In this document: positions 1,627 to 64,000 of the stretch, piece by piece | Position numbering within the stretch: the first letter of the stretch is position 1 | Layout: every line of letters starts with the position of its first letter | DNA from: a virus | Taxonomy: Duplodnaviria > Heunggongvirae > Uroviricota > Caudoviricetes | Virus record (IMG/VR): IMGVR_UViG_3300045988_158233 | DNA length: 64,000 nt | Direction: 5' to 3' (one strand) | Notes under the pieces: model-generated | What the model was told of the DNA's origin: nothing | Seen by the model: only the letters and a program-made list of their open reading frames with translations | The model's database searches: none | Position numbers and translations under genes: made by a program

Positions 1627-2700
1627 CTATTCGTAGTTAAGCTCACCGAACAGACTGAACATCAAGTCACCATCCAAAATTTCAAAGGGCAACTCGACAT
1701 ACTCATCCTTATGTCTCGGAATTGCGTTGCCGTCGTTAGGGGCATTCTTGGTATAACCTTTTACATGTTTACCGTTTTCTTTTGTATACGGCAGCACGAC
1801 AATTCGACCGTGATTTTTTGAAATGATAGTTCCTTCTTTCCAGAGCGTATTGCCTCTTGAGGTGGTTTCGCTTTCGCTAGCAACTTTAACACTCCAACCT
1901 ACCTGATTTTTGTCCTCAAACCAGAAAACAAAGTTGCCAACAACCAGTACCTTTTGCCCATTCCTGAGAGCTTCATCCAGCATTCTTTTTACGCTGGCGA
2001 GTTGCAGTAACCGGTTAGCACGCGGCAGAAGCATTGAGCGAATAGTCGCTTTTGTTTTTCCCCAATGTGCAGCGCCTGATAAACCAAAACCTCTGGCTAT
2101 GCGTTCTTGGTAGCAGATCTTCGCTGTCTTAGCTTTGTTGTTATATGAACATTCCCAAGTGTTAGGAGCAACGAGTTGAAGTGAAACTTGGAATTTGGGA
2201 AGAAAAACAAAATGTAAGTAAGGCATCTCGCTTAGCACGTCAAAAAGGGGTTGACGCAAAGTTTCGTAATCTGGGTTAATTATTAACTCATTTAATGTCA
2301 CTCGCGGATCGTTGGCGTGTGCCTTAATTGCTTCGTTGAGCATTATATGCTCTTCATCCATGAGACGTGATTTGGCTTTGAGTGCTTTGTCAACTTTCAA
2401 ACGCAATGACTTCTTTTGAAACATAGATAGAGGAAGTTTTTCAATGTCAAAGCTCACGTTTTTATTCAGCTCTAATGCCGCTTTTCTTGCTTCAGGATAG
2501 TTATCGTAGTCGTCATCAAAAGCGTGGTTTGGCATACCACGATCAACATATCGCCGATACCAAGCAAGGGTTCCATCATTACGGAGTTTCAGACAGAACA
2601 TCGACCATTTATTCCGTTCATATTTAGGCTGAGGCCAAAAAGCCAGTTCGGGAAGGCCATATCCTGGAAGTCTATTCATGCGCATGGTGACAATATCCAC
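1627..2700 (-). CDS. hypothetical protein
   Basis: 357-aa ORF convergent with par genes; no motif recognised. Confidence 0.5.
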   Translation of the reverse strand: MDIVTMRMNRLPGYGLPELAFWPQPKYERNKWSMFCLKLRNDGTLAWYRRYVDRGMPNHAFDDDYDNYPEARKAALELNKNVSFDIEKLPLSMFQKKSLRLKVDKALKAKSRLMDEEHIMLNEAIKAHANDPRVTLNELIINPDYETLRQPLFDVLSEMPYLHFVFLPKFQVSLQLVAPNTWECSYNNKAKTAKICYQERIARGFGLSGAAHWGKTKATIRSMLLPRANRLLQLASVKRMLDEALRNGQKVLVVGNFVFWFEDKNQVGWSVKVASESETTSRGNTLWKEGTIISKNHGRIVVLPYTKENGKHVKGYTKNAPNDGNAIPRHKDEYVELPFEILDGDLMFSLFGELNYE

Positions 2701-5180: not shown

Positions 5181-6362
5181 ATGAGCCTTTATGTTATATC
5201 AACATTTAGGTTGGTCACAATATTGCCTGTTAAAAGTGGAATTATCGTGAGCGAGCTGAAAGAGCTAATTACCGAATTAGATTTTGAACAATGGTTGGAC
5301 ACTGAAGGTATCGTTTATCGACGTGGAGGCGTGAGTGCTCGCGGTCGTGAAGTGAATATCAAGGAGTGTCCGGTATGCGGCAGCTCCAACTGGAAGGTAT
5401 ATTTCAATCTGACCAGTGGCGTCGGCAAATGCTTCGCTGGTGATCATCCCGAAGAGATTCAGTTCAATAAGCTGGTCTTCCTCAAGCACTACAGCGGTAA
5501 ATCACGACGACAGTTCGAGGAATATGTGCAGAACGCTCTTCTTTCCCAGGGGTGGGCACCAAAGAAAGAAGAGATAGTGCTTACAAGCACAGTCGAGTTA
5601 GAGGGACCACTTGCACTCCCTCGTCATTACGAACTTCCTATAGATGGCCGTCTTCCAGACTATCTGGTTGAACGAAACATATCGCCTGAAATGGCAAAGT
5701 ATTTTGACCTACGATACTGCGTCGAAGGCAAGCACGCTTATGTAGATCCGTATACAGATCAGGTAAAAGGACAGATATTCGATATGCGAGTACTGATACC
5801 GGTTTACGATCTGGATGGGGTAATGAAGACATTTCAGGGACGAGACATTACCGGTACAGCAGACCGCCGCTACCTCTTTCCTATGCAGCTTCCAGCTTCA
5901 GGTAAGTTTCTCTACAACGGCCATAATGCAGTTGGCAAACAGACTGTAGTTGTCTGTGAGGGGGCGTTCGATGTTATGGGAGTTAAACGAGCTATTTTTG
6001 ACGAAGAAACATTACGTGATTACGTGGAACCAATAGGAACGTTCGGGATGCATCTATCTGGCAACACCACTCAGGATGCAGAAGATCAGCTGGGCGCGTT
6101 CCTGACGCTCAAGGCGCGTGGATTACGTAATGTGATCATGATGTGGGATAGTGAAAAGCAAGCTATACGCAACACTATGGCCGCAGCCAGGCGACTCACA
6201 AGTATTGGTCTTAATGTCAAAGTTGCGTGTTTGGGCGAGGAAGGACTCGACCCCGGCGATGCGACACCGGGGCAGATTATCAAAGCCTACTATTGCGCAA
6301 AACCTTATTCACGACAGCTTGAACTCTTAAGCAAGGTGAAAGGCATTGCAGCACTAGTTTGA
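5181..6362 (+). CDS. DNA primase (zinc-ribbon plus TOPRIM)
   Basis: CPVCGSS...C..GDH zinc motif, TOPRIM-like VVCEGAFDV and WDSE; start chosen at ATG after gaaaaacac; longer ORF starts 5109. Confidence 0.7.
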   Translation: MSLYVISTFRLVTILPVKSGIIVSELKELITELDFEQWLDTEGIVYRRGGVSARGREVNIKECPVCGSSNWKVYFNLTSGVGKCFAGDHPEEIQFNKLVFLKHYSGKSRRQFEEYVQNALLSQGWAPKKEEIVLTSTVELEGPLALPRHYELPIDGRLPDYLVERNISPEMAKYFDLRYCVEGKHAYVDPYTDQVKGQIFDMRVLIPVYDLDGVMKTFQGRDITGTADRRYLFPMQLPASGKFLYNGHNAVGKQTVVVCEGAFDVMGVKRAIFDEETLRDYVEPIGTFGMHLSGNTTQDAEDQLGAFLTLKARGLRNVIMMWDSEKQAIRNTMAAARRLTSIGLNVKVACLGEEGLDPGDATPGQIIKAYYCAKPYSRQLELLSKVKGIAALV

Positions 6363-7499
6363 ACCAGTATTAGTCACATACACATTGACCGAAAATGATT
6401 TAACTTCTGTATTGAAGTTGTCAGTCATTACCGCGAGGTAGGCATTCTTGGTATCTCTGAATTGCTTCAGGATGATTTGAACGTTATCGGTGCAAACAAA
6501 CGAGGTAGCCAGATTGCCTCCTTTCTCTGAAAAATCCTTCAGGAAGGTGCAGTCAACTTTGCCATCATTAGCGGTGAAGGTAGCATCATCACCCTGCCAG
6601 GTAAATGTAGCGTTAACGCCCTTATCAATGGATTTAGCAATAAGTCGCTGGGTGGCGGATTTTGTTTTGGCTTTGGAAGCCGGCGCTCGATATTTGCCGC
6701 TTTCTTTCAGTTCTGCAATGTAATCGCAGCCTCTTTTTTCTCCTTTATCGCAAGCAGTCTGATAAAGGTCGGCTGCTTTTTTATAGTCCTTTTTTACACC
6801 TTCCCCATTCTCATACATAATGCCAAGATTGGTTATGGCGTCGGCGTTTCCAAGTTCCGCTGCCTTTTTATACCACTTAACTGCTTCTGCATCATTGCGT
6901 TTAACGCCTAACCCATCATCGTATAGTATTCCTAATCCTATCATAGCTTCTGAACTGCCTTGGTCTGCCGCCTTTTTGTAATAAGTAAAAGCCTTTTTAT
7001 AATTCTTTTTAACGCCTTTACCATATTGGTAATACGCCCCAAGAACTGAAGTTGCTTTAACATACCCGGCATCAGAGGCTAGTTTGAAGTATTTAATGGC
7101 GAGTGCATGATCTACTTTACCAAGCATCCCCTTTTGATAAATAGCACCAAGATTGTTGTAGGCTCTACCTTCACGAGCATCCCCCGCAAGTTTGTAGTAC
7201 TCAACAGCTTTATTTAGGTCTTTATCTACACCCTCGCCAAATGTGTACATAACTCCAAGTGCATAATATGCTACTTTATCTCCCTTTTCTGCAGCTAGAT
7301 CAATCCACTTCTTGGCCTCAACTACATCCTTATCAAAACCATTGACACCATCAAAATAATTTGTACCTAACTCACTTTGTGCTGCGGTATCCCCTGCGGT
7401 AGCGGCTTCTATCAGCGTTTGTTTATTGTCTGCGTTAACGAATCCAGAGTTAAAAAGCAAAGTTAATGCCAGCAACGATGAAGATTTTATGTATTTCAT
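6354..7499 (-). CDS. secreted Sel1-repeat (TPR-like) protein
   Basis: N-terminal signal peptide MKYIKSSSLLALTLLFNSGFVNA, then repeated A..YY.LG..Y..G.GV.KD Sel1-type units. Confidence 0.75.
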   Translation of the reverse strand: MKYIKSSSLLALTLLFNSGFVNADNKQTLIEAATAGDTAAQSELGTNYFDGVNGFDKDVVEAKKWIDLAAEKGDKVAYYALGVMYTFGEGVDKDLNKAVEYYKLAGDAREGRAYNNLGAIYQKGMLGKVDHALAIKYFKLASDAGYVKATSVLGAYYQYGKGVKKNYKKAFTYYKKAADQGSSEAMIGLGILYDDGLGVKRNDAEAVKWYKKAAELGNADAITNLGIMYENGEGVKKDYKKAADLYQTACDKGEKRGCDYIAELKESGKYRAPASKAKTKSATQRLIAKSIDKGVNATFTWQGDDATFTANDGKVDCTFLKDFSEKGGNLATSFVCTDNVQIILKQFRDTKNAYLAVMTDNFNTEVKSFSVNVYVTNTGSN

Positions 7500-15075: not shown

Positions 15076-15095
15076 TACTGTTTACTTATACAGTG
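15076..15095. promoter_or_regulatory. LexA box (SOS operator) upstream of integrase
   Basis: TACTGT-ttacttat-ACAGTG fits CTGT-N8-ACAG consensus; about 27 bp upstream of int start. Confidence 0.6.
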
Positions 15096-15121: not shown

Positions 15122-16225
15122 ATGAAAAATAGCTTTGACAGAGCACGCGCTGCGGAGAACACCTCAAAAGAGGCGATAGAGTATCTCGAAAGAGCATCTC
15201 AAATGCAGGCCGTTATGATCTCCCAGGTCAGCAATGACATGAGATTCTCGGACGCATTCATGTTATTCACTCGCTTATCTCTGCTGATAACCAGACGTCG
15301 GCCAGAGATCGCTGTTCATTGTATTTTGATACATGTTTTGCCGCACATTGCCGATGTAAAAGTAAGTGACATTAATAGGTTCATGGTGAACCAACTGGTC
15401 AACCCACTAATACTGGATGGCAAAATTGTTATGGGCCGCCGCGTTTTCTCTCTGATGAAGCAGTTCCTTAGCTGGTGCGCCTTCCAGGGGATGATAGACG
15501 TGTCACCGTTAAACGATATGTCACTTAACAAAGTTGCCGGTGGCGCAAAGCCCACACCTCGCGAGCGGAAGCTGACCGACGCAGAGGTATGGGTGTTCTG
15601 GAATATATGGGACTACTTCAATGTGTGTGCTGGTACAAAATGGGCGGCCAGGCTGTGTCTTGTATCAGCAAGACGACCTGACGAAGTACTGCGGGCTAAA
15701 AAAAGTGAGTTCAATCTTAAGCGTGGGGTTTGGAATCAAGGCAAGAGGAACAAATCTGCCCGTGAGCATTCTCTGCCTTTAAGCTCATTAATGCGCACTT
15801 GTATTGAAGAGTTGTTCGAATATGGTAAAGACAGCCAGTGGCTCGTGCCTTCGAATAAAAAAATCGGGAAAGACCTTCCTATGTCTAAAGTGGCAATAGC
15901 CCAGGCATTACGTCGTATTCTGGAACGACCAGAACTGATGGAGCTTGAGCCATTTACACCCCGAGATTTGCGCCGTACTGCGCGTAGTTACTTCCCAGCA
16001 TTAGGCATAAGCCAGGAGGTATCACGTAAAATCATGAACCACAGTCTTGAGGGGATAGATCGGGTCTACGACCGGCACGATTATATGGACGAGATGCGAG
16101 ACGCCTTAGAAAGTTTCTCGACGTACATCGCATCAATCGTAGAGCAACCGGATTTAGACGAAATTGACCACAAATTTAAGGGAGATCGTCTATCAACAGA
16201 GCTTATTCGTGTAAATTTTTCATAG
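15122..16225 (+). CDS. tyrosine recombinase / integrase (P4-type)
   Basis: Catalytic-region motifs LVSARRPDEV (R), HSLPL, TPRDLRRTARS, and C-terminal RVYDRHDYMDEMRDAL with tyrosine nucleophile. Confidence 0.75.
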   Translation: MKNSFDRARAAENTSKEAIEYLERASQMQAVMISQVSNDMRFSDAFMLFTRLSLLITRRRPEIAVHCILIHVLPHIADVKVSDINRFMVNQLVNPLILDGKIVMGRRVFSLMKQFLSWCAFQGMIDVSPLNDMSLNKVAGGAKPTPRERKLTDAEVWVFWNIWDYFNVCAGTKWAARLCLVSARRPDEVLRAKKSEFNLKRGVWNQGKRNKSAREHSLPLSSLMRTCIEELFEYGKDSQWLVPSNKKIGKDLPMSKVAIAQALRRILERPELMELEPFTPRDLRRTARSYFPALGISQEVSRKIMNHSLEGIDRVYDRHDYMDEMRDALESFSTYIASIVEQPDLDEIDHKFKGDRLSTELIRVNFS

Positions 16226-20608: not shown

Positions 20609-20814
20609 TCGTGCGTAAAGGATGTTTCGGCTCTCTTATCGCTGCTTCTGAAACTGGTAAGGCTTGTCTGGTGTGTCCAGACAAGCCCGATTGTCACCAA
20701 TCAGCAAAAGAAGTTGCGATTTCGATGCATGGGAAGTTCGTAGGCTTCCCCAATGACAAAATCAAAAAAACCAGAAAGGTAAAAACACATGAAGGCACTG
20801 ATGGTTCGAACTGA
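20605..20814 (+). CDS. small Cys-rich protein (doubtful)
   Basis: 69-aa ORF with C..CxxCPDKPDC; overlaps polymerase start by 26 bp. Confidence 0.25.
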   Translation: MIVRKGCFGSLIAASETGKACLVCPDKPDCHQSAKEVAISMHGKFVGFPNDKIKKTRKVKTHEGTDGSN

Positions 20815-23800
20815 CTTCTCACTTGGGGAGTCGGCTCTAAAAGCAGAAAACGCGGTGAAGATTGCCAGAGAAGCTGGCTACACCGCTGTAATTTCAGCAG
20901 ATAGCATGAATATTGCGAGCGTTATTCCACTACAACGTGCCGCTGGTGACGACATGGCGGTTATTTGTGGTGTGAAACTAAACATTGTTGATGATCCCAC
21001 ATACGAGCACCGGGCTAAACTTGCTAAAGAATCTATGAGATGTATGGAATCATTAGAGCGGGGACGTAACTACTCGTTTACCGCTCTAATTAAAAATGAG
21101 CAAGGATATCGCGACATCTGCGAACTAATGACGGTGGCCAACACACGAGAACAGTTCTACTTTGTACCGCGTCTCTCGCTCGAACAGTTGGTTTCTACAT
21201 ATGCCAAAGGCAACATCATCCTGCTCACTTCCGACATCGGTAGCGTGTTCCAACGCAACGATTTTGCAAAAATCATAAGCTCACTGATTACAGCGGGCGG
21301 GAAAGACAACTTCTATAGCGTGGTTTATCCGCACCCTACCCCATTCTACGACCAGATTAACGTCCGAGCGATGAAAGTAGCCAGCGCACTGAAAATAGAG
21401 CCAGTAGCGTTCTATCCCGCTTATTACGAATCGATCGACGATGCAGACATTAAAGACATTGCGCACATGGTTACGAACAACATAAAAATCGACCAGCCGC
21501 ATCGTCTGCGTATCCCCCACCAGCGAGATAACGCCGTCAATGGTCGCCGCCATCTCCTTGAGGCGCTTAAAGCCTTCTCCGTTCGCATGGATGTGCCGGT
21601 AACAGCTGCAATGGCCTCAACAACGCAGGACTCCATTATCGAAGCCTGTACATGGCGCTGGCATGAATTGCCACCAGCACTGCCCAAGATGGCAGACGAC
21701 GAGCCTGCAACGCTGATGAAACTGGCTGTTGCAGGGCTGCGCAAACGTCTTACCACAAAAGAGTTTGGCTACACACCACCGGCTTCTGAGAACAGGGTTT
21801 ATGTTGAGCGACTTAAGTACGAAATGGACACGCTTACTCGCCTGGGATTTTGTGGTTACTTCCTGATGGTACGCGATCTGATGAATCACAGCCGTGAAAC
21901 TGGCATTCCTGTCGGGCCTGGTCGTGGTTCCTCCGCTGGCTCTTTGGTGGCATGGTGCATAGGCATAACCAACGTCGACCCTATCCGTCACGGTCTTCTG
22001 TTTGAACGTTTCATCAACCCTGAGCGTCTCGACTTGCCAGATGCGGATTTGGACTTCAGCCAGGCACGTCGCCATGAGGTGATCGAGTATCTGAATGAAC
22101 GATACGGCGAAGATTACGTTGCGGGTATTCCGAACTTCACATATCTGGGCGCAGCCTCTGCACTACGTGACACCGCTCGTATTTATGGTGTGGAGTCCGC
22201 AGATATGGCGGTATCAAAAGAACTGAAGAACGTCGAGGATGATAGCCTTCCATTGGAAGAGCTGCGCGAACAACTGGCAAGTCTCGACAAATACGCGACA
22301 AAATATCCTGATGCATTCAATGCAGCCTGCAAGTTACAAAGCCTTATGCGTGGCTTTGGTAGACATGCGGCAGGGATGATCGTAGCAGGTGTTCCTCTGA
22401 CAGAACGTACACCGGTTGAGCGCCGTGGTGACGCGCGTTGTATCGCATTTGACAAGCGTTACTGCGAGGCTATGGGCCTAATTAAGCTGGACGTACTTGG
22501 CCTAGCAACTCTCGATTTGCTTGATAGTGCAAAACGCTACATTAAAGAGAACACAGGTGAAGATATCAATCTTGATGCCATTTCTCTTGAAGATCGCAAG
22601 GTGCTGGATGGTTTTGCTGCTGGGTACACTCAAGGTGTTTTCCAGCTTGAATCAGGCCCAATGCGCAAGCTGCTTAAAGATTTAGGTGGTGGAATTGAGC
22701 CAATGAGCTTTAAAACGGTCGTCGCTACGACTGCGCTCTTCCGGCCGGGGCCAATTCAGTCAGGCATGTTGGATGACTATGTTTCTGTCGCCAAAGGCTT
22801 TATGACGCCGGAATCATTACACCCCGTTCTTGATGAACTTACCGCGGAAACAAATGGCGTGATTCTCTATCAGGAACAGACGATGAACGCGACTCGATTG
22901 CTTGCCGGCTTCACAATGGCTGAAGCTGACGCTGTGCGTTCCGCAATCGGTAAGAAGAACATGGAAAAAATGAAGAGCATGGGCGAGAAGTTCATCGTTC
23001 AGGCTCAAGCTGGCTGGATAGACGTTGAGCTGGAAGATGGCACTACACAGCGCATTCACCGTGCGGAACATTTTAAATGCGAAGACGGAACTCTGAAAAC
23101 TGTCGAAGAGGCACTTGAGCACGGCGCAAAACTACCTATAAACGCAGTACGCGTTACAGCGTCACATCCAGGGCTATCAGAGATGAAAGCGAAGGAGATC
23201 TGGACCGCATTCGAAAAAAATGGTGCCTACCAGTTCAACAAATCACACTCTGTTGCTTACTCCTTGATCAGTTATCAATCTATGTGGTTGAAAACTCATT
23301 ATCCCGCAGAGTTTTTCGCTGCTGCTCTCACTATTCTTGGCGAAGATAAACACCAGGGGCTGGTTAAAGATGCGCTGACCTATGGTATTCGCGTATTGCC
23401 ACCAGACGTTAACGTGTCATCCAACCGAATCGAGATCCGCACGCTTGAAGATGGCAGCCAGGTGCTGTATGCGCCCTTCTCTGCTGTGAAGGGGTGTTCT
23501 GAGAATGGCTGCCAAGCCATCATGAGAGCGCGAGAAAAAGTTGGCGGCAAATTCGAGTCACTGGCGCAATTCGAAGAAGCTGTCGAGAAACGTGCCTGTA
23601 ATAGTCGAGTGCGCGAATCGCTGCAAAAAGTAGGGGCGTTTGCATCCATCGAGCCAGGTAGTCTGCCAGCAACTGATCCAGAGCGCCTACGCGACCAGGC
23701 TGAATTGATGGGAAACCTTGTCATAGACGCAGTTAAAGCCTCACGTCCGTTTGAGATGAACTCCAAACGTTCGGCTGAGATTAACGTGCTCATGACACGG

Positions 23801-24307
23801 ATGGCGGCTGAAATGGGCTTAGGTGATGAACTAATCCGCCCCAGCATTGGTATTAAGCCGAAAATCATGATCATTCTGGACAATGCGAACGGCAATGATG
23901 CTCGAACCGGTTACTTTATGGAGAACGGATACGACGATTTTAAGGCCAAGCTATTGACGGCTGGAGATTTACGCATGGGCGATCTGTATGTCACAGGCGT
24001 TTGCAAAAAGGTGAAAGACAAAGAAAAGGACTACACCAAAGACGAGATCGGCCAGTTCACCGACTTTATGCGTGAAGAGATCAATCTGGTACGTCCGACC
24101 TATGTGCTGACGTGTGGCAGCCGGGCGACGTCGCTCTTCAACAACAAGATCAAACCATCCGACCTGGTTGGACGCAAAGAGTATCTGCCGGAGCTAGATG
24201 TGACTGTTTTCTACGGATTTAACCCGAATATTTTGTACTTTCGCCCAGAGGAAGGCGAAAAGCTGGAAGCAATTCTTGCAGAGGTAGCGGAGACTATTAG
24301 CAAATGA
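20789..24307 (+). CDS. DnaE-family (Pol III alpha-like) DNA polymerase
   Basis: 1172 aa; palm motifs GYFLMVRDL...GIPVGPGRGSSAGSLVAWCIGIT..DP....LLFERFINPER and ..FDK......GLIKLDVLGL..; N-terminal PHP region lacks His residues. Confidence 0.85.
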   Translation: MKALMVRTDFSLGESALKAENAVKIAREAGYTAVISADSMNIASVIPLQRAAGDDMAVICGVKLNIVDDPTYEHRAKLAKESMRCMESLERGRNYSFTALIKNEQGYRDICELMTVANTREQFYFVPRLSLEQLVSTYAKGNIILLTSDIGSVFQRNDFAKIISSLITAGGKDNFYSVVYPHPTPFYDQINVRAMKVASALKIEPVAFYPAYYESIDDADIKDIAHMVTNNIKIDQPHRLRIPHQRDNAVNGRRHLLEALKAFSVRMDVPVTAAMASTTQDSIIEACTWRWHELPPALPKMADDEPATLMKLAVAGLRKRLTTKEFGYTPPASENRVYVERLKYEMDTLTRLGFCGYFLMVRDLMNHSRETGIPVGPGRGSSAGSLVAWCIGITNVDPIRHGLLFERFINPERLDLPDADLDFSQARRHEVIEYLNERYGEDYVAGIPNFTYLGAASALRDTARIYGVESADMAVSKELKNVEDDSLPLEELREQLASLDKYATKYPDAFNAACKLQSLMRGFGRHAAGMIVAGVPLTERTPVERRGDARCIAFDKRYCEAMGLIKLDVLGLATLDLLDSAKRYIKENTGEDINLDAISLEDRKVLDGFAAGYTQGVFQLESGPMRKLLKDLGGGIEPMSFKTVVATTALFRPGPIQSGMLDDYVSVAKGFMTPESLHPVLDELTAETNGVILYQEQTMNATRLLAGFTMAEADAVRSAIGKKNMEKMKSMGEKFIVQAQAGWIDVELEDGTTQRIHRAEHFKCEDGTLKTVEEALEHGAKLPINAVRVTASHPGLSEMKAKEIWTAFEKNGAYQFNKSHSVAYSLISYQSMWLKTHYPAEFFAAALTILGEDKHQGLVKDALTYGIRVLPPDVNVSSNRIEIRTLEDGSQVLYAPFSAVKGCSENGCQAIMRAREKVGGKFESLAQFEEAVEKRACNSRVRESLQKVGAFASIEPGSLPATDPERLRDQAELMGNLVIDAVKASRPFEMNSKRSAEINVLMTRMAAEMGLGDELIRPSIGIKPKIMIILDNANGNDARTGYFMENGYDDFKAKLLTAGDLRMGDLYVTGVCKKVKDKEKDYTKDEIGQFTDFMREEINLVRPTYVLTCGSRATSLFNNKIKPSDLVGRKEYLPELDVTVFYGFNPNILYFRPEEGEKLEAILAEVAETISK

Positions 24308-28442: not shown

Positions 28443-29516
28443 ATGGCAAAAGGAAAATCCGCACTGGCACTTGCTCTGAAAAAGAAAATCGGTAGCAACG
28501 ACGAAATTCAGAAAGTAACTCATTGGATTGATACAGGCTTTCCACCGTTAAACAAAGCTATTTCTGGTCGTTACGATGGCGGCTTCCCATGTGGTCGTAT
28601 CGTCGAAGTATTCGGTCCTCCAAGTGCAGGGAAAACGTTCCTTGCAACAGCAGCGATGATCTCCGCTCAAAAACAAGATGGTCTGGCGGTATTCCTCGAT
28701 CATGAAAACAGTTTTGACGTTGGCCTGGCTGTAGCCAATGGCCTGAACGCAGATGAGGATGACGGTCAGTGGGTATACAAGCAGCCAGATACCTTCGAAG
28801 ACTCTGTAGAGTTGATCGGCACAATACTTAAATTGGTTCGTGATGAAGAGCTTATCCCCGAATCAGCACCTATCTGTATCGTGGCTGACTCTCTTGCGTC
28901 TATGGTTCCGAACTCCAAAGCTGAGAAGTTCGAAAAGATGGCTGAAGGCACTGCCAAAGACAAAGATCAGCTAAACATGAACGACAATACGGCACTGGCT
29001 CGTGCGACGAGTGCGAACTTCCCTACTCTGGCTTTGTGGGCACGCAAATACAACGCCTGCATCATCTTCTTGAATCAGGTTCGCACAAAAATCGGTGTAA
29101 TGTTTGGCGACCCTACTACGTCGCCAGGTGGAGATTCACCGAAGTTCTACGCTTCTGTACGTATCCGTCTTGGTGCATCGGTGATGAAGGATGGTAAAGA
29201 GAAGATCGGCCAGGACGTAGGCGCAGAATGCATCAAAAACAAAGTTGCACCACCGTATGGCAAATGCACCTGGAAATTCTACTTCGATCCTACTCGTGGC
29301 CTCGACGTTATCGAATCGCTCGTCGAGTACATGCTGGAAGAAGGATACCTGCCAAAGAACGCCAGCGGGCGAGTTGAAATTGGTGACAAGAAATACACCA
29401 AATCGCAGATCGTCGAGATGTATCGGGAGAAGCCACTGGCTGAAATCATTGCGGCTTTGCAGGCAATCGACGACCGAAGAGCAAAAGACAACCCCACCGA
29501 GTCAGTAGAAGAGTAA
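28443..29516 (+). CDS. RecA-family recombinase
   Basis: Walker A GPPSAGKT, Walker B ICIVADSLASM, and conserved FLNQVRTKIGVMFGDPTTSPGG..PKFYASVRIRLG. Confidence 0.8.
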   Translation: MAKGKSALALALKKKIGSNDEIQKVTHWIDTGFPPLNKAISGRYDGGFPCGRIVEVFGPPSAGKTFLATAAMISAQKQDGLAVFLDHENSFDVGLAVANGLNADEDDGQWVYKQPDTFEDSVELIGTILKLVRDEELIPESAPICIVADSLASMVPNSKAEKFEKMAEGTAKDKDQLNMNDNTALARATSANFPTLALWARKYNACIIFLNQVRTKIGVMFGDPTTSPGGDSPKFYASVRIRLGASVMKDGKEKIGQDVGAECIKNKVAPPYGKCTWKFYFDPTRGLDVIESLVEYMLEEGYLPKNASGRVEIGDKKYTKSQIVEMYREKPLAEIIAALQAIDDRRAKDNPTESVEE

Positions 29517-60064: not shown

Positions 60065-60693
60065 GCACGGTAGCGAAAGATCTCACAGAAGATATTCTCA
60101 ATGAAATTATTGCTGGTGCAAATACCTCGCTTGAGCAACTTCTTGCGTTAGCACTGAGAGCCGAACGTCGAGACAGAAATCGTTTTTATGAACGATTACC
60201 AGGGAAACGACCAGATAGATCAGATGAAGAAGGTTGCGATATAGACTACATGGAGCCTTCAGAGATTTATCAACTTGGTAAAGATGACGGCTGGAACGCT
60301 TATCACGATGCTGTGATGAAGTTGGATGAAAAAGTTAAACCTCTTTCTCGACCGGTAGATCACGGTTTCCGCGATAACTGCGAATGCTCTAGTTGCCAGA
60401 CCACGGCCCGTATTTGTTCCGAATTGACAGATAAGTCCAGCCTAATCTACGAAGTTAATGTAGGCGGTAATACATGGGTCGAATGCACAAGAGCTGCATA
60501 CGTAAGAGCAAAAGACAAGGGTGAATTAACCAGAGTTGTTGCCCATCACCCAAATAATGAGCTTAAAGATCACCAGATTAGAGAACTGGTGAATGAGTTG
60601 CGGGATATTGCGGTTCAGTACCACGGAACGCAGCAATTGCGGGAGAAAATTGCCAGAGCAGTGAACAACTCAATTAGATCAGAAAGTATGTAG
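60061..60693 (+). CDS. hypothetical protein
   Basis: 210-aa ORF with CECSSC motif. Confidence 0.45.
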   Translation: MSTVAKDLTEDILNEIIAGANTSLEQLLALALRAERRDRNRFYERLPGKRPDRSDEEGCDIDYMEPSEIYQLGKDDGWNAYHDAVMKLDEKVKPLSRPVDHGFRDNCECSSCQTTARICSELTDKSSLIYEVNVGGNTWVECTRAAYVRAKDKGELTRVVAHHPNNELKDHQIRELVNELRDIAVQYHGTQQLREKIARAVNNSIRSESM

Positions 60694-60900
60694 TCAATAC
60701 AATAAAATGGCCCCATTTGGATGGGGCCGGTAACAACTAGCATTATGGGCGCTGGTTGACGTACTCAATGATCGCTTCGATGATTGCGAACATAGGCGGC
60801 ACGATTTTGAAAAGTAAGTTAAGCACTATAGGCCTCACTTAGTTTTATCGCACCTAGCTGCAAATACCTTTGAGCTTGCCTTTGCAGTTGCAATATCTGT

Positions 60901-61093
60901 AGTCGCCAGATACTTACGGCACGATTTCGAGTTAAGGTAAGGTTTTAGAGTCACCAAAAACCTGGACTTAAATCTTCTTTGAGAACAACGATGTTTGGTA
61001 AATGGTCATTATTACCTAGCATGACGGCTCAACGTTTCTTGATGAATCCAGTACATTCGGTTAATCTTAGCTCAGTCGCCAGATACTTATGGC
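60901..61093. repeat. 20-bp direct repeat pair in non-coding region
   Basis: agtcgccagatacttacggc (60901..60920) and agtcgccagatacttatggc (61074..61093), 173 bp apart. Confidence 0.6.
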
Positions 61094-61126
61094 TCAGGAA
61101 CAGAGGCGCAAACTCTGTTTCCTTTT

Positions 61127-61160
61127 AAAAAGCCCAGCCTAGTCAACTGGGCTTTTTTAA
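61127..61160. terminator. bidirectional terminator-like hairpin
   Basis: aaaaagcccag-cctagtcaa-ctgggctttttt. Confidence 0.55.
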
Positions 61161-61453
61161 TGTCCGTTTTTAACCAAATGTACCCACAATACCGCAACAT
61201 CAGTGTCTTGCGAATTAAGATAGGATTTATAGAGACTATGTGCAAGTGCATAACTTTGTGGATAACTCGTAAAGGAAAAAGTGGTTTCCGCGGACATTAG
61301 TTCAGACAAGGAGTCTGGGAAAGTCAATGGGAAGTAAAAATTTGTTAAAAATAACGTTTGTTGGAATTGTATATATTTATGCCTTTCAATAGTTAGCATC
61401 TTATTAACATCTTTTTTAAGAGATAGAGTTCAAAAATATATAGCTTCAACATA

Positions 61454-61473
61454 TACTGTATGCATATACAGCA
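61454..61473. promoter_or_regulatory. LexA box upstream of umuD-prime-like gene
   Basis: tACTGTatgcatatACAGca = CTGT-N8-ACAG; 16 bp upstream of ATG, RBS aagagg between. Confidence 0.6.
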
Positions 61474-61489
61474 TTAAGAGGCGAGTATT

Positions 61490-61879
61490 ATGGGCTTCCC
61501 TTCTCCTGCGGCGGATTATGCTGAGAGCCGTATTTCTCTTGATCAGCAGATAATTAGACATCCTTCAGCGACCTACTTCATGAGGGCGGCTGATAGTCAT
61601 CATCGTGAGGGAATATTGCAGGGTGCATTGCTGGTGGTCGATTCCTCACTGACTCCTGTTGATGGATCTCTTCTTGTATGTGCTCTGGATGGGGAATATC
61701 GCGTAAAAAGATACCGGAAGTATCCACGTCAGCATCTGGAGGATTTAAGAACTGGTAAGAAGGAAGCATTGCCAAAGGATGATGATGGATGCACGGGCAG
61801 CAATGCCGTGTTTGGTGTGATCACTCACATTATCAACGACGCAAGAAGTGGCGAGTTTGATGATTGTCCTGTGATGTAG
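61490..61879 (+). CDS. UmuD-prime-like (HumD-like) S24 peptidase-family protein lacking the N-terminal arm
   Basis: Begins MGFPSPAADY (matches UmuD sequence from the Cys24-Gly25 cleavage site onward), retains DS (Ser nucleophile region) and VKR (Lys) positions. Confidence 0.7.
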   Translation: MGFPSPAADYAESRISLDQQIIRHPSATYFMRAADSHHREGILQGALLVVDSSLTPVDGSLLVCALDGEYRVKRYRKYPRQHLEDLRTGKKEALPKDDDGCTGSNAVFGVITHIINDARSGEFDDCPVM

Positions 61880-61891
61880 GAGAACTGTTTA

Positions 61892-61916
61892 GGTGGTGCA
61901 TTGCACCACCTTTTTA
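61892..61916 (+). terminator. rho-independent terminator
   Basis: ggtggtgca-t-tgcaccacc followed by TTTTT; abuts mrp stop codon. Confidence 0.6.
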
Positions 61917-63017
61917 TCACACTGCGCGGAATGCGATTTCGCCAGGTATTACTTCACCTTGCCAATACATTTGGGCAGCAACGCGATCTGCGAGGTCACG
62001 ATAAATAGCCGTAAATTCGCTATCTGGACGACTAATAACGGTTGGTGTTCCGTTATCCAGATCTTCACGAAGAGAGATATGAAGTGGCATTTGGCCTAAC
62101 AACTGCGTGTTGTATTTCTCGGCCAGTTTCTGTGCGCCACCGGTGCCAAAAATTGGCTCGTGATGACCGCAGTTACTGCAAATATGCACACTCATGTTTT
62201 CGACGATACCTAGTACCGGCACTTCGACTTTTTCGAACATCACAATGCCTTTCTTCGCATCGATCAGCGCGATGTCTTGCGGCGTAGTTACCACAACCGC
62301 ACCAGTTACAGGAATGTTCTGCGCCAGCGTCAATTGAATATCACCAGTGCCCGGCGGCATATCGAGAACGAGATAGTCCAGATCAGGCCACAGTGTTTCC
62401 TGCAACATCTGCATCAGCGCCTTGCTGGCCATCGGTCCACGCCACACCATTGCATTGTCGTCGGTGACCAGATAACCAATAGAGTTGGTTGCCAGGCCAT
62501 GAGACATGATAGGTGCCATGTGAGTACCGTCCGGTGAGGTTGGACGTTGGTTTTCCGCGCCCAGCATGGTTGGAATTGATGGACCATAGATATCGGCATC
62601 CAAAATACCAACTTTCGCACCTTCAGCAGCCAAAGCCAGTGCCAAGTTTACTGCTGTGGACGATTTGCCTACACCGCCCTTGCCTGAGCTTACGGCGATA
62701 ATATTCTTAACACCATTAATGCCTGGTTGGTTTTTGACGCGCTTAAGCGTGGCAATGTTGTACGACAGCTTCCAGTCAATAGCCTTTGCGCCAGTGATAC
62801 GGAGCAGATCACCACTACATTGCTCTTTCAGGTCTTCAAAAGGCTTATTCCACACGAAAGGCATGATTAGTTCGACATGCAGTGTGTCATCCATCAACGC
62901 AACATGGTGTAACGCTTTAAGCGTAGTCAGGTTGTGTTTCAGGGTTGGGTGCTGAAAATTAGCCAGCGTACCGGCTACCATTGCTCTCAGGGCATCCGGC
63001 GATTTGGACTCGCTCAT
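61917..63017 (-). CDS. apbC: iron-sulfur cluster carrier ATPase Mrp/ApbC
   Basis: Full-length match by eye to E. coli Mrp: deviant Walker A SGKGGVGKSST, CSNCGHH motif. Confidence 0.9.
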   Translation of the reverse strand: MSESKSPDALRAMVAGTLANFQHPTLKHNLTTLKALHHVALMDDTLHVELIMPFVWNKPFEDLKEQCSGDLLRITGAKAIDWKLSYNIATLKRVKNQPGINGVKNIIAVSSGKGGVGKSSTAVNLALALAAEGAKVGILDADIYGPSIPTMLGAENQRPTSPDGTHMAPIMSHGLATNSIGYLVTDDNAMVWRGPMASKALMQMLQETLWPDLDYLVLDMPPGTGDIQLTLAQNIPVTGAVVVTTPQDIALIDAKKGIVMFEKVEVPVLGIVENMSVHICSNCGHHEPIFGTGGAQKLAEKYNTQLLGQMPLHISLREDLDNGTPTVISRPDSEFTAIYRDLADRVAAQMYWQGEVIPGEIAFRAV

Positions 63018-63174: not shown

Positions 63175-64000
63175 ATGACCCAAGTCGCGAAGAAAATTCT
63201 GGTGACGTGCGCGCTGCCGTACGCTAACGGCTCAATCCACCTCGGCCATATGCTGGAGCACATCCAGGCTGATGTCTGGGTTCGTTACCAGCGAATGCGC
63301 GGCCACGAGGTTAATTTCATCTGTGCCGACGATGCCCACGGTACGCCGATCATGCTGAAAGCACAGCAGCTTGGTATCACACCGGAGCAGATGATTGGCG
63401 AAATGAGTCAGGAACACCAGACTGATTTCGCAGGCTTTAACATCAGCTATGACAACTATCACTCGACGCACAGCGAAGAGAACCGTCAGTTGTCTGAGCT
63501 TATCTATACTCGCCTGAAAGAGAACGGTTTTATTAAAAACCGCACTATCTCTCAGTTGTACGACCCGGAAAAAGGCATGTTCCTGCCGGATCGTTTTGTA
63601 AAAGGCACCTGCCCGAAATGTAAAGCGCCAGATCAATACGGCGATAACTGTGAAGTCTGCGGCGCAACATATAGCCCGACTGAATTGATCGAGCCGAAAT
63701 CGGTGGTTTCTGGCGCTACCCCGGTAATGCGTGATTCCGAACACTTCTTCTTTGATCTGCCTTCTTTCAGCGAAATGTTGCAGGCATGGACCCGCAGCGG
63801 CGCGTTGCAGGAGCAGGTGGCGAACAAAATGCAGGAATGGTTTGAATCCGGCCTGCAACAGTGGGATATCTCCCGAGATGCGCCTTACTTCGGTTTTGAA
63901 ATTCCGAACGCGCCGGGCAAATATTTCTACGTCTGGCTGGACGCGCCGATTGGCTACATGGGTTCCTTCAAGAATCTGTGCGACAAGCGCGGCGATACCA
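63175..64000 (+). CDS. metG: methionyl-tRNA synthetase (5' part; continues beyond window)
   Basis: N-terminus [35 protein letters not shown] with HLGH motif and zinc knuckle CPKC...CEVCG. Confidence 0.9.

Follow-up and report, generated by a model that had tools for sequence, protein, structure and literature searches.

Among described systems, the closest to the gene examined here is humD of phage P1. Reportedly characterised by McLenigan et al. in 1999, the P1 protein is said to bind UmuC and to be poorly expressed, with good complementation obtained only from a high-copy plasmid; if expression is indeed that poor, the protein may add little to mutagenesis under natural conditions. The P1 database record carries the note that HumD 'functionally complements E. 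coli UmuD′'. humD is a LexA-regulated SOS gene of P1 (PMC9603915), and the ability to substitute for UmuD′ with the host UmuC is known for the P1 orthologue alone (PMC7092418).

Here we analysed a homologue found in a 64,000-nucleotide stretch of viral DNA (IMG/VR record IMGVR_UViG_3300045988_158233; hereafter, the window), for which an initial annotation, made from the sequence alone, had proposed a UmuD′-like gene in pre-processed form under a LexA box. The gene is a catalogued, already known member of the HumD family: at a site on an E. coli plasmid matching the window at 100%, RefSeq lists WP_000506720.1, HumD family translesion DNA polymerase.

The window is part of an SSU5/pSLy3-type phage-plasmid

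Over its full length, and leaving aside IS100 insertions in the plasmid, the window is 99.8–99.99% identical to the 115.7-kb circular E. coli plasmid NZ_JBWDPU010000001.1. The genes of this plasmid include RepB and ParB functions, terminase, portal, capsid and tail genes, tRNAs, nrdAB, thyA and dfrA51, and it also encodes a DnaE-like polymerase and a RecA-like protein. The window thus comes from a phage-plasmid of the SSU5/pSLy3 type (group names as in PMC11652158), related to phages Cyrano, CMS-2020a and PhiR41_1.

Directly downstream of humD lie apbC (61917..63017, minus strand) and the 5′ part of metG (approximately 63175..64000, plus strand), a divergent pair that has the arrangement of the E. 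coli chromosome and is only about 88% identical to the chromosomal copy. A chromosomal prophage junction at this pair was considered and rejected, because the whole window is plasmid-borne; the pair represents two housekeeping genes present a second time, in diverged form. In complete E. coli genomes, the query matched 222 plasmid-borne places.

On the other side, a stretch of about 800 bp with low GC content (37–41%) and no RefSeq gene separates the upstream operon from humD (60694..61489). It contains a minus-strand ORF of 80 aa (61157..61399) that matches PHROG 28987, of unknown function, over its full length (E 1.5e-38), as well as a sub-threshold RNAI-like Rfam match (61071..61160; 24 bits, gathering score 47) with a terminator-like hairpin at its end (61136..61153). 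Scanning 60600..62000 against Rfam at E ≤ 1 returned sub-threshold matches only, among them a toxic-sRNA model (21 bits, gathering score 50). The gap 5′ of humD is only about 160 bp in PhiR41_1, and its last 65 bp or so are P1-like.

humD encodes a protein that begins at the UmuD cleavage point

The humD coding sequence (61490..61879, plus strand) specifies 129 aa plus a stop codon, and its product, a pre-truncated accessory subunit of the UmuD′ type, opens with MGFPSPAADY (N-terminal residues MGFPSPAADYAESR.../MGFPSPAADYAESRISLDQQ). An in-frame TAA stop (61475..61477, plus strand) lies four codons upstream of the ATG, the interval 61454..61519 being translated as YCMHIQH*EASIMGFPSPAADY, and a longer N-terminus is therefore not encodable. 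A Shine-Dalgarno-like AAGAGG can be read from the sequence at 61476..61481 (plus strand), 8 nt 5′ of the ATG.

The initial annotation had placed the N-terminus exactly where self-cleavage of UmuD produces UmuD′, and two alignments agree with it. In a search against solved structures, Gly2 of HumD corresponded to Gly25 of full-length UmuD (PDB 8gmt_B) and to residue 1 of UmuD′ (1umu, E 7e-23), these two being the best structure matches. A MAFFT alignment with MG1655 UmuD and P1 HumD gave the same register, with Met1 in the place of UmuD Cys24. Together with the upstream stop, these alignments put the N-terminus of HumD at the Cys24/Gly25 cleavage position of UmuD, with the N-terminal arm absent.

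The proposed likeness to P1 HumD was also upheld, with 91% identity and equal length, as compared with 44% identity to MG1655 UmuD (both by MAFFT); yet what it identifies is a member of a catalogued family and not a new parallel. Scored with NF051876, the equivalog model of NCBIfam for the HumD family translesion DNA polymerase (cutoff 120), the protein reached 219.8 bits (E 8e-66), its residues 1–129 covering profile positions 1–129 of 129. Relative to UmuD, it has a four-residue insertion and a ten-residue C-terminal tail, SGEFDDCPVM, both of which are found in P1 HumD too. Pfam identifies a Peptidase_S24 domain.

Two neighbouring classes fit less well. The subfamily model for UmuD/MucA-type proteins, NF007621, gave 87 bits, below its cutoff of 110, and both the alignment and the upstream stop leave HumD without the autoproteolysis arm that carries the cleavage site in proteins of that type. 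The LexA model reached 27 bits against a cutoff of 111, over the C-terminal part only; with 129 aa consisting of the S24 domain alone, HumD is without the N-terminal DNA-binding domain of LexA/CI-type repressors. The AlphaFold2 model (mean pLDDT 48.6, pTM 0.38), built on a 53-sequence alignment in which all members were at least 67% identical, was too poor to interpret, and we therefore relied on the sequence match to solved UmuD′ structures.

A predicted LexA operator precedes humD

A 20-bp palindrome of the LexA type begins at 61454, the position from which the initial annotation had counted the locus. This predicted LexA (SOS) box, TACTGTATGCATATACAGCA (61454..61473), agrees with the consensus TACTG(TA)5CAGTA in 17 of its 20 letters; 16 nt separate the end of the 20-mer from the ATG, and 18 nt separate the ACAG from it. 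It is the one site in the 64 kb of the window with three or fewer mismatches from the consensus, and no such site appeared in 100 shuffles. The shorter motif CTGT-N8-ACAG taken alone was found twice against 0.94 expected, which is not significant, so that the significance of the box rests on the 20-mer and on a position weight matrix (PWM). This matrix was built from E. coli SOS boxes, and its absolute scores are approximate: the humD box scored 23.6 bits, compared with a median of 19.8 for the training sites and a best score of 16.2 in 30 shuffles. The ranking is robust, two sites in the window exceeding 21 bits and all others staying at or below 10.9. The box has the same position as the annotated site of P1, a position conserved also in N15, phiKO2 and others, and at the sequence level it supports the LexA box that had been proposed upstream of the gene.

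A sigma-70 promoter-like sequence, TTCAAA-17 nt-TATACT (61429..61457, plus strand), is predicted next to the box; it is weak, matching the consensus at 9 of 12 positions, and its −10 hexamer (61452..61457) reaches into the box from the left. A consensus scan showed no enrichment of such sites in the humD region, with two found against 3.5 expected. Downstream, a terminator scan identified an intrinsic terminator (61891..61916, plus strand) made of a 9-bp GC-rich stem, a 3-nt loop and TTTTT, with a predicted fold of −17.9 kcal/mol (z = −3.1), between the stop codon of humD and that of the convergent apbC. The box, the promoter-like site and the terminator around humD therefore delimit a compact monocistronic cassette.

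The other site of the window above 11 bits, TACTGTTTACTTATACAGTG (15076..15095; 21.3 bits), is an equally convincing LexA box that lies 26 nt 5′ of a gene for a 367-aa tyrosine recombinase/integrase (15122..16225, plus strand), a promoter-like TTGATC-17-TAATAT coming just before the box. Both its CTG/CAG half-sites and the hexamers of the promoter are kept, with a varying spacer, in the E. coli phage CMS-2020a (SCU-175), and also in the Klebsiella phage-plasmid pJN2-26 (box TACTGTATATAAACACAGTA), where the DNA is only about 73% identical. This arrangement suggests that SSU5-type phage-plasmids carry a recombinase under SOS control.

Purifying selection, conservation of the start and drift of the catalytic dyad

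humD is under strong purifying selection. Comparison with P1 humD gave a dN/dS of 0.043 at a dS of about 1 (Nei-Gojobori), and that with the Cyrano gene showed zero nonsynonymous changes at a pS of 0.136. The family is also widespread: a search of 5.8 billion proteins retrieved 561 relatives, the humD region was matched in 773 of 5426 E. coli genomes, where it is mostly plasmid-borne, and matches with no less than 60% identity occur in about 690 PLSDB plasmids. The 120 best cluster representatives, none below 67% identity, came from Escherichia, Citrobacter, Klebsiella, Enterobacter, Salmonella, Kluyvera and Trabulsiella.

Within this set, 106 of the 120 representatives start with M-G-F/Y-P-S-P, and a Met occupies the start column in 117 of 121 sequences (the query plus the 120 representatives). 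Most of the longer gene calls, such as P0023, P0024 and P0046, keep a Met right before GFPSP, which points to miscalled starts. At the other end, the tail conserved in the family, GEFDDCPV(M/I), has no counterpart in UmuD.

Ser and Lys had been noted at the expected catalytic positions, and Ser36 and Lys73 do align with UmuD Ser60 and Lys97 (MAFFT, with MG1655 UmuD and P1 HumD). Judging from sequence variation, their retention is no sign of activity. In the same 121 sequences, the Ser column holds S in 76, T in 43 and A in 2; the Asp of the GDSM motif, which reads ADSH in the window, is hypervariable; and the Lys is kept in 118. The N15 and phiKO2 proteins have Thr at the Ser position, and in more distant pre-truncated relatives from IncX3 plasmids neither residue is left, Tyr and Met standing in their place. 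The dyad is probably vestigial in the family, and its retention here would be vestigial or structural. In these pre-truncated proteins, which have no site left to cleave, the peptidase function appears to be decaying, as would be expected when self-cleavage has become dispensable.

The element encodes no UmuC

In agreement with the initial annotation, which had seen no umuC-like partner, tblastn with E. coli UmuC at E ≤ 10 gave no match in the window or in the 115.7-kb plasmid, and the annotation of the plasmid lists no Y-family polymerase. Nor is there a umuC in the operon, since a terminator closes humD and the convergent apbC comes next. By contrast, umuC is nearly universal in E. coli (5423 of 5426 complete genomes). 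The element must depend on the catalytic subunit of its host, as reported for P1.

The window does contain two other genes that could bear on how the element uses HumD. One (20789..24307, plus strand) encodes a Pol III alpha-like DnaE of 1172 aa with a C-terminal domain resembling family-4 uracil-DNA glycosylases (TIGR00758, residues 1053–1170), and the other (28443..29516, plus strand) a divergent RecA-like protein, which scored 153.7 bits with TIGR02012, below the cutoff of 325.

The cassette recurs in phage-plasmids and prophages

One strong LexA box (21–25 bits) precedes humD in P1, PhiR41_1, Cyrano, N15, phiKO2 and a P2-like chromosomal prophage of Citrobacter, and the site is annotated in the P1 and phiKO2 records. 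DNA similarity between the window and P1-like sequences begins about 0–10 bp 5′ of the box (query positions 145–155, with the box at 155) and ends approximately at the stop codon (query positions 572–579, with the stop at 580). Because the similarity is limited by the box and the stop codon, the moving unit comprises operator and gene.

In PhiR41_1, a phage-plasmid of the same type, the coding region of humD shares 98.5% identity with that of the window, but the upstream region is of the P1 type, GCACCAAAGGTG...TTTAATGT... (stretches compared: PhiR41_1 2437..2501 and P1 2975..3039, each in its own numbering, and window 61425..61489). The combination of a window-like coding region with promoter and operator of the P1 type indicates that recombination took place inside the cassette, yielding a mosaic of P1-like and SSU5-like sequences. 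The LexA box plus humD is thus a portable cassette of P1-, N15- and SSU5-type phage-plasmids and of prophages.

A related SOS cassette has two genes: a LexA box is followed by an ORF of 79–80 aa and, 3 nt downstream, by a pre-truncated UmuD′-like gene. We found it on an IncX3 plasmid (1759..2381) and in a Citrobacter prophage (5697..6390; each in its own numbering). The first ORF has the pattern MPR...EPNGR.TVTT...QANEWIE.YV...STQEGENRTF.LFNPNGG, with no Pfam hit on record. In the P2-like prophages of Citrobacter, the two-gene cassette is divergent from dinI, and on IncX3 plasmids it adjoins the DinQ-like toxin gene dqlB, with a UmuD′-like protein that lacks both dyad residues.

Discussion

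Taken together, the promoter-like site, LexA operator, ribosome-binding site, humD and terminator very probably form a self-contained SOS cassette that would supply the host UmuC with a preformed UmuD′. In an undamaged cell, host LexA bound to the box would cover the −10 and start region and keep humD off; after DNA damage, activated RecA would promote the self-cleavage of LexA, and humD would be transcribed. The protein would be synthesised directly in the active UmuD′ form, skipping the delay imposed by slow RecA-mediated self-cleavage. Methionine aminopeptidase removes the initiator Met when it precedes Gly; residue 2 of HumD being Gly, Met1 should be removed, and the mature start, GFPSPAADY, would be the N-terminus of UmuD′. 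The N-terminal arm of UmuD carries determinants for degradation by Lon and ClpXP, which HumD would be without. A HumD dimer, host UmuC and RecA-ATP would then assemble into a translesion polymerase of the Pol V type. For LexA repression, SOS induction, UmuC and RecA binding and translesion synthesis, this scheme follows by analogy the work on P1 HumD; for Met removal and dimerisation, it also draws on what is known of UmuD and methionine aminopeptidase. None of the present results speaks against it.

Of the alternatives, only one retains a real, although small, probability: that HumD is SOS-induced but has a role other than host Pol V mutagenesis, through other contacts of UmuD and UmuD′ or through the DnaE-like and RecA-like partners of the element itself. 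It could act, for example, via RecA filaments or Pol III subunits, by damping RecA-mediated recombination, or in a replication checkpoint. We consider this improbable since P1 HumD complements UmuD′, according to the annotation of its record, and reportedly binds UmuC (McLenigan et al., 1999), and N15-like phage-plasmids and Citrobacter prophages have no dnaE beside humD in the stretches examined. What keeps it in play is that a Pol III alpha-like and a divergent RecA-like protein are encoded on the element itself, that humD lies near hot, which encodes a Pol III theta homologue, in P1 and D6, and that the tail shared by the family, missing in UmuD, has no known function. In addition, McLenigan et al. 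in 1999 are said to have left unsettled why phages carry humD, and the role of umu-like genes of plasmids has been called unclear (PMC11541004).

In a related and likewise unlikely scenario, HumD would serve the replication of the phage-plasmid itself and, with the putatively LexA-controlled tyrosine recombinase, would constitute a small SOS regulon encoded by the element. HumD would then engage the DnaE-like or RecA-like protein of the element, or immediately the host UmuC, so that the episome of about 110 kb is copied past lesions before induction or while it proceeds. That the cassette recurs in all three of the enterobacterial phage-plasmid lineages examined (P1, N15 and SSU5) would in that case reflect a need peculiar to episomal prophages.

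It is very doubtful that HumD, as an S24-only protein, is an SOS-induced anti-repressor or a dominant-negative partner of a phage repressor that aids prophage induction. Known SOS-dependent antirepressors share the LexA control, an antirepressor regulated by LexA occurs in N15 (PMC11652158), and the S24 domain is common to the CI and LexA repressors. However, LexA is a far more remote match of HumD (E about 1e-3) than UmuD′ is (E 7e-23, 44% identity), the protein fits the HumD equivalog model, its P1 orthologue has UmuD′ activity, and no S24-type repressor was identified next to humD. Finally, a functionless pseudogene or 5′-truncated remnant of umuDC, as the length below that of umuD, the lack of umuC and the change from GDSM to ADSH might suggest, is effectively refuted by the dN/dS of 0.043 and the precise Met-Gly start conserved across the family, besides the gene having its own Shine-Dalgarno sequence, operator and terminator and its wide distribution in genomes and plasmids.

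The analysis confirms the annotation of the window as regards operator, promoter, start and terminator. As a discovery the locus carries little weight, with a curated NCBIfam model and a RefSeq name at the fully matching site already in existence, and it leads to the minor question of what episomal prophages gain from a preformed UmuD′, which they carry so regularly.

Comparison with described systems

The locus is most similar to that of P1, whose HumD (YP_006569.1) shares the length of 129 aa, the MGFPSPAADY start and the C-terminal tail, as well as a LexA box 16–19 nt upstream, the lack of a cognate umuC and residence on a phage-plasmid. It differs in that the element of the window is a siphovirus phage-plasmid of the SSU5/pSLy3 type, and in unrelated flanks: lxr upstream and phd-doc downstream in P1, as opposed to the spacer of about 800 bp and apbC-metG in the window. 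The operators differ as well, that of P1 being TACTGTATAAATGAACAGTA.

The UmuD-like proteins gp26 of N15 and gp23 of phiKO2, both linear phage-plasmids, have in common with the window a pre-truncated (M/V)GFPSPA start, the GEFDDCPV tail, a LexA box, identical to that of the window at 19 of 20 positions in phiKO2, and no umuC; in contrast, their DNA is about 68% identical, and the phiKO2 gene is divergent from dinI. With UmuD and UmuD′, the accessory subunit of Pol V (PDB 1UMU, 1AY9 and 8GMT), HumD shares the S24 fold family, LexA regulation and the N-terminus of UmuD′. Unlike UmuD, which has a 24-residue N-terminal arm, HumD lacks the arm and, hence, the RecA-dependent activation step, and its gene lies outside a umuC operon. 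The S24 proteins of IncX3 conjugative plasmids (e.g. WP_000506741.1) resemble it in their MGFPSPATDY start, their LexA box and the absence of an adjacent umuC, but they are 49% identical and have lost both dyad residues, and their gene is the second one, after a 79-aa ORF homologous to the 80-aa ORF that precedes humD in the Citrobacter prophage.
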